From Bdellovibrionia bacterium (lineage in GTDB: Bacteria > Bdellovibrionota > UBA1018): a stretch of DNA of 47,121 bases. The translations under genes were made by a program, and so were the position numbers. Below the pieces are notes generated by a model that saw only the letters and a program-made list of their open reading frames with translations, ran no database searches and was not told where the DNA came from. Every line of letters starts with the position of its first letter. Within the stretch, counting starts at the first letter, position 1. The stretch lies in NCBI GenBank assembly GCA_045805065.1, contig JBJMMA010000185.1, forward strand, positions 1 to 47,121, read 5' to 3'. Below, one piece after another: positions 1 through 27,195 of this stretch.

Positions 1-65
1 TCAGGATCCGGAACAGAACTTTTCAAAAGTAACTCACACTACTCTACAAGCGATGCTTTGGCATT

Positions 66-500
66 GGTCGCCGTGGCGACCGTTTTCCGGCAAGGTTTGC
101 CTAGTGGTGCCGGGTTTTTGACGCTGATTTTGGTCGCCGTGGCGACCGATCTTTTGTTTTGGGTTCGCTTTTGGGCTGAGATCGACTCTTTTTTGCTCTA
201 TTTCGGGCTTGTTTTGGTCGCCGTGGCGACCGTTTTCGGTGCTTCTCTGGGGCTTAAATGCACGCTTTGCACTTTCATTTGATCGCCGTGGCGACCGATT
301 TCGCATTTATTTAAGTCTCTGATGCGTAACCTGCGCTTCAAAATGGTCGCGGCGGCGACCACTCAAAGCATCTTTATGGGCTCAAATGTGGCGTGAATCG
401 GTTCGTTTTGATCGCCGTGGCGACCGAAAACACGCATTTAAGGGCGTGTTGAAGGCCCAAAACTTACGTTTTTCGCTTCGAAATGATCGCCGTGGCGACC
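66..500. repeat. Array of seven 16-bp palindromic repeats G(G/A)TCGCCGTGGCGACC with 48-68 bp T-rich spacers
   Basis: Copies at 66-81, 132-147, 216-231, 281-296, 345-360 (GGTCGCGGCGGCGACC variant), 410-425 and 485-500. Each is a 7-2-7 inverted repeat. Start-to-start periods are 66, 84, 65, 64, 65, 75. Confidence 0.95.
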
Positions 501-501
501 G

Positions 502-1296
502 TTAGCTGCTGGCGCTTTGATAGCGTTTGAGGCCTTTTCGCCAAAAAACGACGTTGAAAACGTAGAATGCGGCAAGTACTGCGGCGATTAATACGTATTC
601 TTTTGGCTCAAGTCCCTTCAAAAGGGCACGCGCTGGAACGCTTCCGATGAATGCAAAGGGCAGTGCTGTGAGGATTAAATAGCGAATTGCTTGGGGGTAG
701 AGCGCGTCAGGCTTGGTCGCAAATGCGAAGAACTGATAGTAGAGACGCGATAGAGCCCAGCTTCTCTCGGTCCAAAAGATCCAAACAGAGAAGGCAAAGC
801 GAAGCAAAATGGCAGTGAGAAGGCCTACCAAAAGCCAAAATCCGAATGCTAGCCAGTGCCATCCGCCTGCAAATCCTGCGGGACCTGCGTAGGTAATCGT
901 GATCCCAAGACCCAAAAAGAAGTTAAAGGACGCCGTAATGGCGATCCAGCGCGTGAGCGAGAGGAAGAGCGGGCTCACGGGTTTAGTGAGCAGAATGTCG
1001 AGCTCGCCCTTGTTCACAAGGTCTGAGAAGTTCCAGAAGTTGCGCTGAAAGAGCATCGTAAAGAGCGCGTCGGATGAGAAGAACACGCCCAAAAAGAAGT
1101 AAACCTGGGGTTTGGTCCAGCCTGCGAGGTTTGGAACGTTGGCGTAAATGACGTTAAAGAGACTGACCTCAACGCCAATCCAGATGATGTCGGTCATTAC
1201 GGAAGTCAGGAAGTTGGTGCGATAGACGGCTTCGCGAACCCAATTGTTCTTCAGTTGAACGCGGTAGATCTCAAGATATTGAAGAAACTTTTTCAT
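502..1296 (-). CDS. ABC-2 family permease (DUF990/ABC2_membrane_6 type)
   Basis: About 6 TM segments, 'GELDILLTKP' motif, C-terminal 'GLKRYQSASS'; operon with ATPase. Confidence 0.9.
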   Translation of the reverse strand: MKKFLQYLEIYRVQLKNNWVREAVYRTNFLTSVMTDIIWIGVEVSLFNVIYANVPNLAGWTKPQVYFFLGVFFSSDALFTMLFQRNFWNFSDLVNKGELDILLTKPVSPLFLSLTRWIAITASFNFFLGLGITITYAGPAGFAGGWHWLAFGFWLLVGLLTAILLRFAFSVWIFWTERSWALSRLYYQFFAFATKPDALYPQAIRYLILTALPFAFIGSVPARALLKGLEPKEYVLIAAVLAAFYVFNVVFWRKGLKRYQSASS

Positions 1297-3172: not shown

Positions 3173-4207
3173 TCAGAGTTTTCGGCGGGTACCGGTCGAG
3201 GACTTGAAAGTCAGGCCTTCGACATAAGCGTTGTAACGAGTGACGATGGTTTTGTTCTCGCCAAGACCATCTGCTGCAAGCGCAGCTTCGACAAATGAAG
3301 TCTCCACCGGGAAAGCCGTAATGAGTTGGGCAGGCACCAAGTGCTGCTTCTTTCTCTCGGCTCTGTTGTCAGCGATGGAATAGATCAGCCAATGCGTGTT
3401 GGTGTCCCCTTCGACCTTGTGAGGGAAAGGAACGAAGTCGGTGCGGATGATCACATCACCCGTCTCGGTATGAACCGTCTCCTCCAGGCGCATCGACTTC
3501 AACGAATCAAAGTCGTAGGTCACAAGAGTTGGGCTGACCGCACGCGAAGCGCTGCGCGTGAGAGTCTTCAAGATGGAAGGCTCGTTCTTGAAGGCGATCC
3601 GTCCGGCAAAGTAAGTCGCGTTTGAGAAAAGTGATCCCGCTTTTGGAAGCGGGCTCAAGGTTCCGATTGGAAGCCCAAAGCCACGATCCAAAGTGTCGCG
3701 CACCCAGCGAGCCCGCTTGTAACCAAACGAGGTCTTCAAGTTGCTGAAGAGGTAGCCATAGGTGTGTTGGACGCCAGCGTGAAGAATCTCACGATTGTTC
3801 ACCATGAAAGGTTTGCCAGCAGGTGGAGCAAAGAACTCGACCAATGGGTCAATCAGGGTTGGTGAGACAATGATTCCGCGAGCAAGCTCATCGAAGTTGA
3901 TGCAGTAGCCCCAGAGCTCAAGCCAGTCCTTGCGGCGAGAATCCGCCTTCATCTGGGAGTAAAGTACCGGCTGCTCTTTCTGCAGAGCTTTGATGACTGA
4001 TCCGTTTTGAGACGCTACGGACTCCAAATCCCGAGCCAGTCCCGCCCAGGGACAATCCTCTGGCTTTTCACCTTGGCCTTCATCAGGACAAGTTGAGGAA
4101 GCATAAGTCTTGGCCGATGGGCTAACCCATGAGGCCAAAGAGAGAAGAGTGGAGGCGATCAGGGCTCCGAGCAGGAAGCTCGAATAGGTCTTCAGACGTG
4201 TGCTCAT
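3173..4207 (-). CDS. Hypothetical exported protein
   Basis: Long ORF with a hydrophobic signal-like N-terminus from MSTRLK (ATG 4207); co-oriented upstream of the ABC operon. Confidence 0.75.
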   Translation of the reverse strand: MSTRLKTYSSFLLGALIASTLLSLASWVSPSAKTYASSTCPDEGQGEKPEDCPWAGLARDLESVASQNGSVIKALQKEQPVLYSQMKADSRRKDWLELWGYCINFDELARGIIVSPTLIDPLVEFFAPPAGKPFMVNNREILHAGVQHTYGYLFSNLKTSFGYKRARWVRDTLDRGFGLPIGTLSPLPKAGSLFSNATYFAGRIAFKNEPSILKTLTRSASRAVSPTLVTYDFDSLKSMRLEETVHTETGDVIIRTDFVPFPHKVEGDTNTHWLIYSIADNRAERKKQHLVPAQLITAFPVETSFVEAALAADGLGENKTIVTRYNAYVEGLTFKSSTGTRRKL

Positions 4208-4242
4208 AGATGCCCCCAGCCTTACCACGGGGCGGTCGGGGC

Positions 4243-4791
4243 CTAAAAGTAGAAACGGATCCCAACCCCGCCCTGAACAAAACCATAAGTGGCGGGAATC
4301 ACACCCACTCCGGGGGCGATCTCAGCAAAGACCCCTAAGGGGACGGTTACCGGGCGCCATTCGACGCCTAATGGGATCCTGATGCCAAATCCGGCCGAAC
4401 CCTGGTCGGATCTAAAGTAGGTACGGTCCTTATTTCCGGTATCCTGGGTTTGGATGAAGATTTCCGCGCCAACGCCGACGTAAGGATTCAGCGCGCTGAC
4501 AAATTCGTTCGTCTGACCGAATGCTCCAGGGAAGTGGTAGAGGTAATCGGCAAAGACCAGAAAATAGTCGCTGAACGAATACGACAGAGTCGTATCGACT
4601 GCCGACCTCCGATCGATCCAGTACTTCCCGGTAATACCGGTCGGCTCACCCAAAACGACCCCGAGCCCAAATGGGCGGCTTGTCTCTGGGCTGCCCGCAT
4701 GGGCCGTCTTCAACTTGGCGAAGCCGGAGTTGGGAAGGGCACAAGTCAGGCCGATCAAAAGAACACAGGTCGTTGAGAATTGAGTCTGCAT
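4243..4791 (-). CDS. Small outer-membrane beta-barrel protein (DUF3996-like)
   Basis: AAGGAGA RBS before ATG 4791, signal peptide, 'FGLGVVLGEPTGITGKYW', C-terminal 'GIRFYF'. Confidence 0.8.
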   Translation of the reverse strand: MQTQFSTTCVLLIGLTCALPNSGFAKLKTAHAGSPETSRPFGLGVVLGEPTGITGKYWIDRRSAVDTTLSYSFSDYFLVFADYLYHFPGAFGQTNEFVSALNPYVGVGAEIFIQTQDTGNKDRTYFRSDQGSAGFGIRIPLGVEWRPVTVPLGVFAEIAPGVGVIPATYGFVQGGVGIRFYF

Positions 4792-4868
4792 AGGAAGTCT
4801 CCTTTTCAATGTCGGGGCCACCTCGAGGAACGTCGTTTGCACTTCCGGGGTCTATCGGAGACATTCCC

Positions 4869-10580: not shown

Positions 10581-11495
10581 TTGAACCAGTTGGCCGCGAG
10601 AGTCAGGGTGAAAAAAGAGCAGGCGAAAGCAAAGATGGAAAAGCGTCCGGTGACGCCGTTGGAGGGCGAGCTTATTGCTGAAATTGATGAAGCCGCCGAC
10701 CGACTTTTGTTCTTATCAAAGGTCAGTCAGGTGCTCGGTCGTGCGTTAACTGACAAGGAATGCTTTGACCATTTGTTGGAGCTGGTGGTGCCGAAACTGG
10801 CAGATTGGGCCACGCTCACGATTGTCAACGAGCGCGACGAGCTCCAGCGTGTTGGAACCGCACATACTGATCTTGTAAAAAGACAGCTATTAAAAGATTT
10901 AGGAAACCGGTACCCGCCGAGAATTGATGACCCGACTGGTCCGGGGTTTACGATTCGGAATGGAAAATCCGAATTTGTTCCTGATTACGGACAGACGTTC
11001 GACGTACAGATGAATCAGGTTCGTTATCCGGAGCTCAGGGAGATCTTACGAACTTTACGCATTCGTTCCAAAATTTCGGTTCCCATCTCCGCGCACGGAA
11101 GGATACTGGGCGCTCTTTGGATAGCCACTTCTGACTCAGGGCGAGTTTTCAATGAAAGTGACTTGAAACTGGCCGAGGAAATCGCGTCACGCGCGGGCTA
11201 TTTCGCTTACCACTTGATCCAGTATGCTCTTGCTTCGCGGAAGTTTGAAAGGCTCCAAATTGAAGTTCATGTAAGGGAACAGCTGCTTTCTCAGCTTCGC
11301 CATGATGTGCGTTCAATCTTGAGCTCCGCACTTCTGTCTGCGCAGATGATCGAGCGGAGCGACACAACAAAAAAGAATATTTACGCGAAACGAATCATCA
11401 CCGCTGTTCAGAGAGCAACAGAGATCTTGGACAAGACAAAGGAGAGCGCTCTGGCTGAAGCTTCGCATGGCTTTACGGACAAAAAGAGCGCATGA
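10581..11495 (+). CDS. GAF domain + HisKA (DHp) protein lacking a HATPase domain
   Basis: 'VPKLADWA', 'VPISAHGRILGAL', 'FNESDLKLAEEIASRA', H-box 'HDVRSILS'; start uncertain (10581, 10608 or 10634). Confidence 0.8.
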   Translation: MNQLAARVRVKKEQAKAKMEKRPVTPLEGELIAEIDEAADRLLFLSKVSQVLGRALTDKECFDHLLELVVPKLADWATLTIVNERDELQRVGTAHTDLVKRQLLKDLGNRYPPRIDDPTGPGFTIRNGKSEFVPDYGQTFDVQMNQVRYPELREILRTLRIRSKISVPISAHGRILGALWIATSDSGRVFNESDLKLAEEIASRAGYFAYHLIQYALASRKFERLQIEVHVREQLLSQLRHDVRSILSSALLSAQMIERSDTTKKNIYAKRIITAVQRATEILDKTKESALAEASHGFTDKKSA

Positions 11496-27119: not shown

Positions 27120-27195
27120 TGGTGGGTTGGGACGGAATCGAACCGCCGACACATGCCTTTTCAGGGCATTGCTCTACCGACTGAGCTACCAACCC
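27120..27195 (-). tRNA. tRNA-Phe (GAA)
   Basis: 76 nt; acceptor stem GGGTTGG/CCAACCC, anticodon arm ATGCC-CTGAAAA-GGCAT, T-loop GTTCGATTC, encoded CCA. Confidence 0.97.

Follow-up and report, generated by a model that had tools for sequence, protein, structure and literature searches.

The first 506 bases of the window, a 47,121-nucleotide stretch that opens contig JBJMMA010000185.1 (C185) of a Bdellovibrionia bacterium (genome G000; 262 contigs, 94% complete), hold an array of seven 16-bp palindromes. The palindromes are probably a non-canonical parS centromere array, here called parS2, which would load the protein ParB2 and belong to a second ParA-ParB module on the main chromosome of a whole order of Bdellovibrionota. 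ParABS is the textbook machine of bacterial chromosome segregation. To our knowledge, the sequence of parS is near-universal and one ParABS per replicon is the rule. Livny 2007 is cited in PMC11789641. Judged by its sequence, the parS2-parA2-parB2 module is separate from the parA1-parB1/parS1 system of the same genomes and has a site sequence of its own.

Palindrome array in the window

The array is composed of copies of GRTCGCC-NN-GGCGACC, all seven of which match the pattern GRTCGCCNNGGCGACC with at most one mismatch when both strands are scored (Table 1). The chance expectation for this pattern is a mean of 0.01 matches, and none of 100 dinucleotide-preserving shuffles of the window reached 14. 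The start-to-start spacings of the sites are 66, 84, 65, 64, 65 and 75 bp. The spacers are 48-68 nt long, mutually unrelated, and contain 38-50% G+C, compared with 51% for the window. Since the array begins at a distance of only 66 bases from the contig end, seven copies are a minimum, and the array probably continues leftwards towards the unassembled parA2 gene. No promoter hexamers were found in positions 1-700 of the window. The same-genus relative G001 has two 9-of-12 promoter-hexamer matches, one per strand, that on the parA2-sense strand being located between the array and the proximal site; both are too weak to build on.

A first-pass annotation, made by a model from the letters of the window, had described the seven palindromes, the G>A change at position 2 of three of them (sites 4, 6 and 7), the spacings, the T-rich flanks, which are readable on the plus strand, and the abutment of the last copy on the stop codon of the ABC transporter operon. 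All of these descriptions agree with our search. The altered centre that it assigned to one copy is roughly right, as site 5 has a GC centre, but one base of an arm is changed as well. Its proposal that the sites share one face of the DNA helix does not hold. With 10.5 bp to the helical turn, the cumulative phase drifts from site to site through 0, 103, 103, 171, 206, 274 and 326 degrees. Over 48 related loci, 85 neighbor spacings range from 35 to 111 bp and are only weakly periodic (Rayleigh R 0.20 for 10.5 bp). Helical phasing was therefore rejected as a general property of the arrays.

Palindromes precede a second parA-parB pair

The gene order of the locus is the same in four relatives from two families of the order (G001, G005, G006 and G060): a hypothetical gene, an ABC ATPase gene, two ABC-2 permease genes, the palindromes, parA2, and parB2. 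The genes tig and truA follow parB2 in three of the four, and other genes are found there in G005. The sites of the relatives are located 80-510 bp upstream of parA2 and also inside it, and parB2 comes next. The flanks of the relatives' palindromes fall into two recurring contexts. One consists of the C-terminal end of the ABC-2 permease found in the window, which reads ...RYQSASS up to the stop codon, and in many relatives a site is positioned within about 0-30 nt of this stop codon. The other is the frame of parA2, where the palindrome is translated as GRHGD or VA.AT. The ABC-2 permease is the conserved upstream neighbor that anchors the synteny of the module, and any functional link to it is putative.

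Contig C43 of G000 opens with the tail of parA2, 26 codons that are 88% identical to those of G001, followed by the complete parB2 gene. The parA2 gene of G000 apparently fell into the assembly gap between the start of C185 and the start of C43. The first-pass annotation had proposed a candidate parS- or sopC-like array for a ParB-like protein, with the gene of the binding protein just to the left of the window. The order of permease stop codon, palindromes, parA2 and parB2 in the relatives supports the former, and the parA2 tail and parB2 across the assembly gap support the latter. The minus-strand frame TTG AAA AGT..., which it named at the left edge, reads LKSSVPDP and is unlike the conserved start of ParA2, MASF(R/K)E.CFTPAEF, so that parA2 does not begin there.

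Distribution of parS2, ParA2 and ParB2

Among 61 genomes, G000 and 60 relatives, the exact 16-mer occurs in 43, and a reversed-pattern control in none. In nearly every one of these genomes, the palindromes cluster on one contig. We also evenly drew a phylum sample of 401 Bdellovibrionota genomes, comprising G000, 57 others from its family, 34 from the rest of the order, and 309 from outside the order; the name of the order was inferred from record titles, and the compared genomes are related, so that the counts are of non-independent events. ParB2-grade matches, defined by an E-value of 1e-60 or better, were found in G000, 54 of the 57 genomes of the family, and 25 of the 34 in the rest of the order. 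None of the 309 genomes outside the order contains one, and the best score there, about 106 bits, belongs to ParB1, the ParB of the first system. The exact motif is present in 79 of the 80 ParB2-bearing genomes. Of the 12 genomes of the order that lack ParB2, one has the motif (G383, 77% complete), and beyond the order 7 of the 309 genomes contain it at single sites; the six of these that were listed have non-RY centers (R, purine; Y, pyrimidine). ParA2 is absent too from all four ParB2-negative genomes tested. ParB2, ParA2 and the palindrome come and go together.

Palindrome arrays at contig ends were observed in the window and in three relatives with Bdellovibrionota-type titles (L061, L088 and L095). 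The locus seems hard to assemble, and absences of ParB2 or ParA2 from draft genomes (G305, G024 and G383) are therefore to be read with caution.

A wide scan, with one genome taken per species (185,579 species), looked for pairs of the palindrome separated by 20-50 nt and returned 102 stretches. ParA2 is encoded in 33 of the 102 loci (at least 503 bits) and ParB2 in 32 (at least 373 bits). For all 33 loci that were listed with a title, that title is of Bdellovibrionota type, and the records with the module are titled Bacteriovoracaceae, Bacteriovorax stolpii, Oligoflexia, Bdellovibrionales, or Bdellovibrionota metagenome-assembled genomes (MAGs). The closest ParB2, with a score of 596 bits, comes from an 'uncultured Bacteriovoracaceae bacterium' (L090). 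Three further loci of the wide scan are those mentioned above with Bdellovibrionota-type titles and the array at a contig end. The remaining loci come from G+C-rich phyla and contain no ParB within 5 kb. In family f22, which belongs to other Bdellovibrionota, 98 of 100 genomes have at least two ParB-family matches (E-value 1e-10 or better), neither of them ParB2-like, and the second may be a ParB-like nuclease-type protein. The accessible part of a published description of B. bacteriovorus gives one ParB (PMC7186360).

Site consensus and selection on DNA

The consensus of 180 sites from 48 non-redundant loci is C-GGTCGCC-RY-GGCGACC-G; the parS2-type palindrome is also written out as GGTCGCCACGGCGACC. 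The central dinucleotide is RY in 175 of the 180 sites (AC in 76, GC in 62, GT in 27, and AT in 10), and both orientations occur. The flanks extend the palindrome, with C at position -1 in 84% and G at position +16 in 72% of the sites. When G000 is compared with G001 (88-90% identity between their ParB2 proteins), an alignment is obtained for the sites but not for the spacers, and the copy number is at least seven in the former compared with three plus one upstream in the latter. The arrays of two relatives (L032 and L033) contain near-identical units of 55 bp and 47 bp, and arrays seem to grow by recent tandem duplication.

One to three sites are located inside the parA2 frame, 190-380 nt into the coding region, in the variable linker between the N-terminal domain and the ATPase domain (linker predicted local distance difference test score, pLDDT, of about 40-60). 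In 25 of the 48 loci, one site is positioned exactly 67 nt before the codon of the Walker A lysine of ParA2. The linker peptides GRHGD and VA.AT (VAAAT, VATAT or VAMAT) are present together with the DNA site and are not conserved without it; the DNA site appears to be written into the linker of the protein. Intragenic sites can be seen, for example, at L042:1142 and L039:1409-1561, and correspond to columns 66-170 of the ParA2 alignment. Because the sites align without their spacers, their units duplicate in tandem, and they dictate the linker peptides, selection appears to act on the DNA sequence rather than on a hairpin. An RNA hairpin would keep the pairing and not the letters, and a protein-coding constraint is at odds with the existence of intergenic copies. 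The simple explanation would be a symmetric dimer that recognizes double-stranded DNA in a sequence-specific manner.

Predicted properties of ParB2 and ParA2

ParB2 is encoded by about 300-330 codons. The protein matches the domains ParB_N (1.3e-23) and HTH_ParB (3.4e-07), and across the loci compared the matches range from 1e-23 to 1e-25 and from 1e-7 to 1e-9, respectively. Its best solved relative is the Myxococcus ParB 7bnk (1.5e-29), and the nearest structures also include ParB/Spo0J of Bacillus and Thermus. In a MAFFT alignment, ParB1 and ParB2 proteins share the motifs GERRLRA and E..ENxxR without variation. By these features, ParB2 has the make-up of a true ParB with the predicted characteristics of a site-specific cytidine triphosphate (CTP) clamp. 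The recognition helix of ParB2, KSRITECIGFTRLP, is almost invariant among ParB2 proteins, and its counterpart in ParB1 is DRATVSNFLRLLRL. According to the accessible part of Jalal et al. 2020 (PMC7383237), a few residues of the recognition helix and the adjacent helix set specificity, and certain residues are DNA contacts conserved in ParB and Noc. The differences between the helices of ParB2 and ParB1 include some at these contact and specificity positions, as mapped approximately through the MAFFT alignment. The N-terminal peptide of ParB2 is KTRQGSGYLKQLYSTAR as opposed to LGKGLASL in ParB1, and the two proteins are 22-24% identical. The differing peptide suggests that ParB2 has a private ParA partner. 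A tblastn search of ParB2 against 72,556 plasmids gave no match with more than 41% identity or more than 54% coverage among the best 12 listed. A plasmid origin of ParB2 was rejected, since no close plasmid counterpart is present among these matches.

ParA2 is a ParA-family ATPase of 330-390 residues (AAA_31 at 1.5e-34), and its nearest solved relatives are ParA/Soj proteins. Members of the family are annotated just as 'ParA family protein' or 'chromosome partitioning protein'. In the predicted structure, the best superpositions of the ATPase domain are with ParAs of the Soj type (TMt 0.82-0.88). The 66 N-terminal residues are modelled with a pLDDT of about 90 as a strand, a helix-turn-helix, a β-hairpin wing, and a helix; the model suggests a winged-helix domain of DNA-binding type. 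Full-length type Ia ParAs, the V. cholerae ParA2 (7npe, TMq 0.69) and the P1 ParA (3ez2), align to ParA2 over about 390 columns. The nearest folds of the N-terminal domain are BldC (TMt 0.74, root-mean-square deviation 2.2), phage Xis, and the MerR-type proteins CvkR and SoxR, at a weak best E-value of 0.026. A Foldseek search with the N-terminal domain alone returned nothing at an E-value of 0.001 or better, and the likeness to BldC, Xis and MerR is a lead. The first 64-65 residues of three ParA2 proteins have no significant Pfam family, and the best E-values of 0.032 and 0.073 are noise.

First system and chromosomal position

An ordinary parA1-parB1 pair is located on contig C55 of G000, with two copies of TGTTCCACGTGGAACA just upstream. 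Canonical-type sites in G000 are found upstream of parA1 only, and one or two of them precede parA1 in all five other genomes examined. Five better-assembled relatives contain exactly two ParB genes each. In five relatives (L161-L165), the ParB1 gene lies 8-17 kb from dnaA, beside mnmG and rsmG. The canonical parS consensus is TGTTNCACGTGAAACA. The array shares no half-site with it and would therefore be a non-canonical parS. As parS1 precedes parA1 and the window-type sites precede parA2, the two parA genes have different palindromes in front of them, one kind for each system.

The genes of ParB2 and ParB1 share a contig in six genomes, 60-324 kb apart (144, 198 and 324 kb in three of them). 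In three of these six, those in which dnaA was mapped as well, the ParB2 gene also shares a contig with dnaA, at distances of 76, 167 and 297 kb. Because ParB2 shares contigs with both ParB1 and dnaA, the two systems lie on one replicon. The position of ParB2 is origin-proximal, as its distances amount to about 2-12% of the genome size (2.7-4.1 Mb). The features of ParABS present in the second system are inverted repeats of about 16 bp, their linkage to a parA-parB operon, a partner protein with ParB_N and helix-turn-helix domains, and the origin-proximal position.

Proposed mechanism of the parS2 module

We hypothesize that ParB2 dimers bind and nucleate on each 16-bp palindrome. With CTP bound at the conserved motifs, the ParB2 clamp would close, slide, and spread from the array, so that a partition complex would build over the array and the start of parA2. 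ATP-bound ParA2 on the nucleoid, stimulated by the N-terminal peptide of ParB2, would then move or anchor the origin-proximal locus. Loaded ParB2 probably acts as a repressor of the parA2-parB2 operon as well; such feedback by ParB2 occupancy is suggested because the sites bracket and enter parA2. We infer the clamp, spreading, transport and autoregulation steps, as well as the assignment of the binding to ParB2 rather than to ParA2. Four points favor ParB2 as the binder: the ParB1 site of these cells has the same 16-bp 7-2-7 layout, the sites form multi-copy arrays that can expand and whose spacing varies, some of them are located deep within a coding region, and parS1 occupies the analogous place just upstream of parA1.

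It is also possible, and we put this forward tentatively, that two separate centromeres with their own sequences coexist in the origin-proximal tenth of one replicon in this predatory order, the second being a domesticated hybrid that serves a different stage or task. The hybrid would combine a Soj-like ATPase fused to a winged helix of the MerR/Xis kind, a CTP-clamp ParB of chromosomal type whose recognition helix has been rewired, and a sopC-like array that can expand and extends into the parA2 frame. Its task might be, for example, the ordering of many chromosome copies in a filament before non-binary division, or the provision of a second loading point for structural maintenance of chromosomes (SMC) complexes. 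The intragenic sites would let ParB2 loading throttle the expression of parA2 directly.

Alternative explanations

Several points speak against parS2 as the centromere of ParB2. The 100% conservation of the 14 arm positions is set by the search pattern and is not independent evidence. The parA2 gene of G000 is unassembled, and its adjacency to the array rests on two contig ends and on synteny in relatives. ParA2 and ParB2 show the same co-occurrence with the motif, and phylogenetic profiles thus cannot separate the two; the winged-helix domain of ParA2, of a DNA-binding type, is confidently modelled. The centromeres of F and P1 are located downstream of parB and not upstream of parA. In genome G390 (L159, G390:C10:1-5942), a ParB2 that is 51% identical and has an intact recognition helix is encoded directly after the ABC-2 permease gene, and this assembly, which is 75% complete, lacks ParA2; palindromes are missing from the contig in question and from the rest of the assembly. 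Degenerate sites with at most two mismatches number six in this incomplete genome, compared with three for the reversed control. The ParB2 of G390 might represent a remnant of the module that is decaying or has been repurposed, and its occurrence fits the binding of the palindromes by ParA2 slightly better.

Binding by ParA2 is the main competing explanation, which we nevertheless consider unlikely. The palindromes would be operators for its MerR/Xis-like winged helix, paired in the ATP dimer, through which ParA2 would autoregulate parA2-parB2, with the centromere of ParB2 being something else or ParB2 acting as a co-repressor. Type Ia ParAs such as P1 ParA and F SopA bind their own promoters, and ParA2 resembles them in its alignment to 7npe and 3ez2 and in the modelled winged helix with its nearest folds BldC, Xis, CvkR and SoxR. 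The placement of the sites upstream of parA2 and in its 5' part, and the joint absence of ParA2 and palindromes from G390, which kept ParB2, point the same way. However, the fold matches of the domain are weak and Pfam gives none, and an array of up to eight copies with variable spacing, some of them well inside the coding region, is centromere-like. The 7-2-7, 16-bp layout is that of the canonical parS1 bound by a helix-turn-helix ParB in the same genomes. No alternative conserved repeat for ParB2 was noticed in the loci examined, in which no systematic search was made for one. The binding of the palindromes by ParB2 and by ParA2 is not mutually exclusive. Far less probable is another dimeric regulator, encoded elsewhere and serving, for example, the ABC-2 operon or an operon boundary, with a positional link only to parA2-parB2. 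It would account for the proximity of the sites to the permease stop codon in the window and in many relatives, and for the ABC operon that stays beside ParB2 even in G390. It leaves unexplained why the motif vanishes together with ParA2 and ParB2 within the order and why the distance to the Walker A codon of ParA2 is fixed in about half of the loci, and the neighborhood contains no conserved candidate regulator gene.

The remaining explanations concern the repeat itself. Each palindrome can form a G+C-rich hairpin of 6-7 bp, and the palindromes might act as terminators, stabilizers or processing sites 3' of the ABC operon, or as an array of processed small RNAs, the alternative raised in the first-pass annotation. 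A simple terminator pattern is matched by two of the seven copies on the plus strand, which is antisense to both flanking operons, but shuffles give 1.7 on average (standard deviation 1.5). An Rfam scan of the whole window found nothing in the array, its sole match being a tRNA at 27123-27195 on the minus strand. The arms lack compensatory changes, and their letters are kept even though the ParB2 proteins are only 61-88% identical across the order; the sites occur in both orientations relative to transcription and also within a coding region. An intrinsic terminator or a structured RNA family was rejected on the terminator count, its strand and the Rfam result, and a role as RNA of any kind is very improbable. 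A selfish or defense repeat, either an element like repetitive extragenic palindromes (REP) or miniature inverted-repeat transposable elements (MITE), or a degenerate array of clustered regularly interspaced short palindromic repeats (CRISPR), is the least credible origin, and we regard it as largely refuted. The regular spacing of about 65 bp, the position at a contig end, and the unrelated spacers recall such repeats. Yet all exact copies of the motif in G000 lie within the array, except for a lone site with a TT center (C215:2100); about a dozen places elsewhere in G000 with one mismatch resemble background. The REP-like scatter that the first-pass annotation named as a possible objection is thus not seen, and neither is its other objection, adjacent cas genes, as no match to cas1 was found in the 94% complete G000. 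The conserved unit of 16-18 bp is shorter than CRISPR repeats of about 23-50 nt, the spacers between units are 48-68 nt, and the locus is syntenic throughout an order. These observations led us to reject a CRISPR array on the size of the unit and the missing Cas1, and a dispersed REP/MITE-type repeat on the single locus per relative and on the one array of G000, where C215:2100 is the only outlier.

The same 14 arm bases are also found within longer dispersed or CRISPR-like repeats of other phyla. In Actinomycetota, Acidobacteriota and other G+C-rich MAGs, GGTCGCC..GGCGACC arms have CT, CC, CG or GA centers and form part of longer repeats, about 36-45 nt in length and some 65-80 bp apart, at several loci per genome (examples are L057, L065, L077, L079, L083, L102, L112 and L135). 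These repeats may be CRISPR-like or REP-like. We rejected them as relatives of the array, since they are longer and different repeats with other flanks, non-RY centers, and no ParA2 or ParB2 nearby.

Features of the locus and neighboring genes

The features of the locus are listed in Table 1. The 351-residue protein that heads the ABC operon (window 3173-4228, minus strand) has no Pfam or NCBIfam match, and a similar-sized open reading frame is found in the same place in G001 and G060. A 199-residue open reading frame at 4243-4842 (minus strand) has a sub-threshold match to DUF3996.

Table 1 Features of the parS2 locus and of the first partition system in genome G000. Positions without a contig name refer to the window.
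Feature	Position	Strand	Basis or remark
Whole array, seven 16-bp palindromes with T-rich flanks and unrelated spacers	64..506	no strand	pattern search
DNA between contig start and site 1, not coding for the ParA2 N-terminus	1..63	no strand	
parS2-like site 1, perfect GGTCGCCGTGGCGACC	66..81	no strand	pattern search
parS2-like site 2, perfect GGTCGCCGTGGCGACC	132..147	no strand	pattern search
parS2-like site 3, perfect GGTCGCCGTGGCGACC	216..231	no strand	pattern search
parS2-like site 4, GATCGCCGTGGCGACC, G>A at position 2 (GATCGCC)	281..296	no strand	pattern search
parS2-like site 5, GGTCGCGGCGGCGACC, GC center and one inner arm base changed	345..360	no strand	pattern search
parS2-like site 6, GATCGCCGTGGCGACC (GATCGCC)	410..425	no strand	pattern search
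parS2-like site 7, GATCGCCGTGGCGACC (GATCGCC), one base from the ABC-2 permease stop codon	485..500	no strand	pattern search
ABC-2 permease gene (ABC2_membrane_6, E 5.3e-42), ends ...RYQSASS	502..1296 including stop codon	-	profile match
parA2 tail (last 26 codons, 88% identical to G001)	G000:C43:2-79		opens contig C43
parB2, complete gene	G000:C43:172-1161		start of contig C43
Canonical parS-type sites TGTTCCACGTGGAACA	G000:C55:11042-11057 and 11206-11221		upstream of parA1

Significance and comparison with known systems

If the palindromes are the centromere of ParB2, an entire order keeps a second, vertically inherited ParABS with a different centromere on the same chromosome. The openly searchable literature, in the parts that were accessible and with subscription-only papers outside its scope, describes no second ParB and no window motif for Bacteriovorax, Halobacteriovorax, Bdellovibrio or Bdellovibrionota, and the phrase 'two ParABS systems' was not found in it. 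For Bdellovibrio, the accessible part of PMC7186360 describes one ParAB pair and two orphan ParAs; it also reports that these relatives divide by non-binary fission of polyploid filaments and that it is unclear how the chromosome copies stay apart. The Hi-C section of PMC11789641 presents a typical origin-terminus cross-diagonal and mentions canonical parS only in general terms. In its accessible part, a review of chromosomal ParBs (PMC7022226) names Noc as the paralogue; a replicon with two chromosomal ParABS systems is not described there. The parS2 module would offer a concrete and testable way into the question of how cells with non-binary division keep their many chromosome copies apart. 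It would also be a natural case of ParB specificity rewired together with its target, and live-cell labelling of DNA loci would gain a new ParB/parS pair that differs from the canonical pair.

The parS2 module resembles the chromosomal ParABS systems of the Soj/Spo0J-parS type in its 16-bp inverted repeat beside an origin-proximal parA-parB operon. ParB2 has the ParB_N and HTH_ParB domains and the CTP-binding motifs, with chromosomal ParBs as its nearest solved relatives, and the ATPase fold of ParA2 is closest to Soj. Unlike in these systems, the site GGTCGCCRYGGCGACC is unrelated to TGTTCCACGTGGAACA, the recognition helix and the N-terminal peptide of ParB2 differ, and ParB2 has 22-24% identity to ParB1. 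ParA2 has an extra N-terminal winged-helix domain in its model, and the two to eight sites are clustered, partly inside parA2, on a chromosome that already holds a first system.

The sopC centromere of plasmid F is an array of 43-bp units, each of which contains a 7-2-7 palindrome. The parS2 array is likewise formed by tandem, regularly spaced units, each containing a 16-bp palindrome of 7-2-7 layout around a CC-AC-GG core, and ParA2 would share with type Ia ParAs an N-terminal domain of DNA-binding type, as judged from the model and its weak fold matches. The parS2 array differs from those of F sopABC and P1 parABS in its position upstream of and inside parA2 instead of downstream of parB. 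ParB2 is nearest to chromosomal ParBs and not to SopB or P1 ParB, the plasmid matches listed having at most 41% identity over half of the length. The module also differs from F sopABC in being chromosomal and vertically inherited, with spacers that are not conserved.

Chromosome 2 of Vibrio cholerae, with its ParA2-ParB2/parS2, provides a precedent for a second, sequence-distinct ParB/parS pair in a cell and for a long ParA with an N-terminal domain (7npe, TMq 0.69). In V. cholerae and other multipartite genomes, however, the Par systems are replicon-specific, whereas both systems described here are on one replicon. The retargeting of a ParB-family helix-turn-helix to a new palindrome has parallels in KorB-OB of plasmid RK2 and in Noc-NBS of Firmicutes. 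KorB is encoded on a plasmid and acts chiefly as a regulator. Noc works without a ParA partner at sites dispersed along the chromosome, whereas parS2 is one clustered locus with a dedicated ParA2 encoded beside ParB2, which rules out a nucleoid-occlusion system of the Noc-NBS type.

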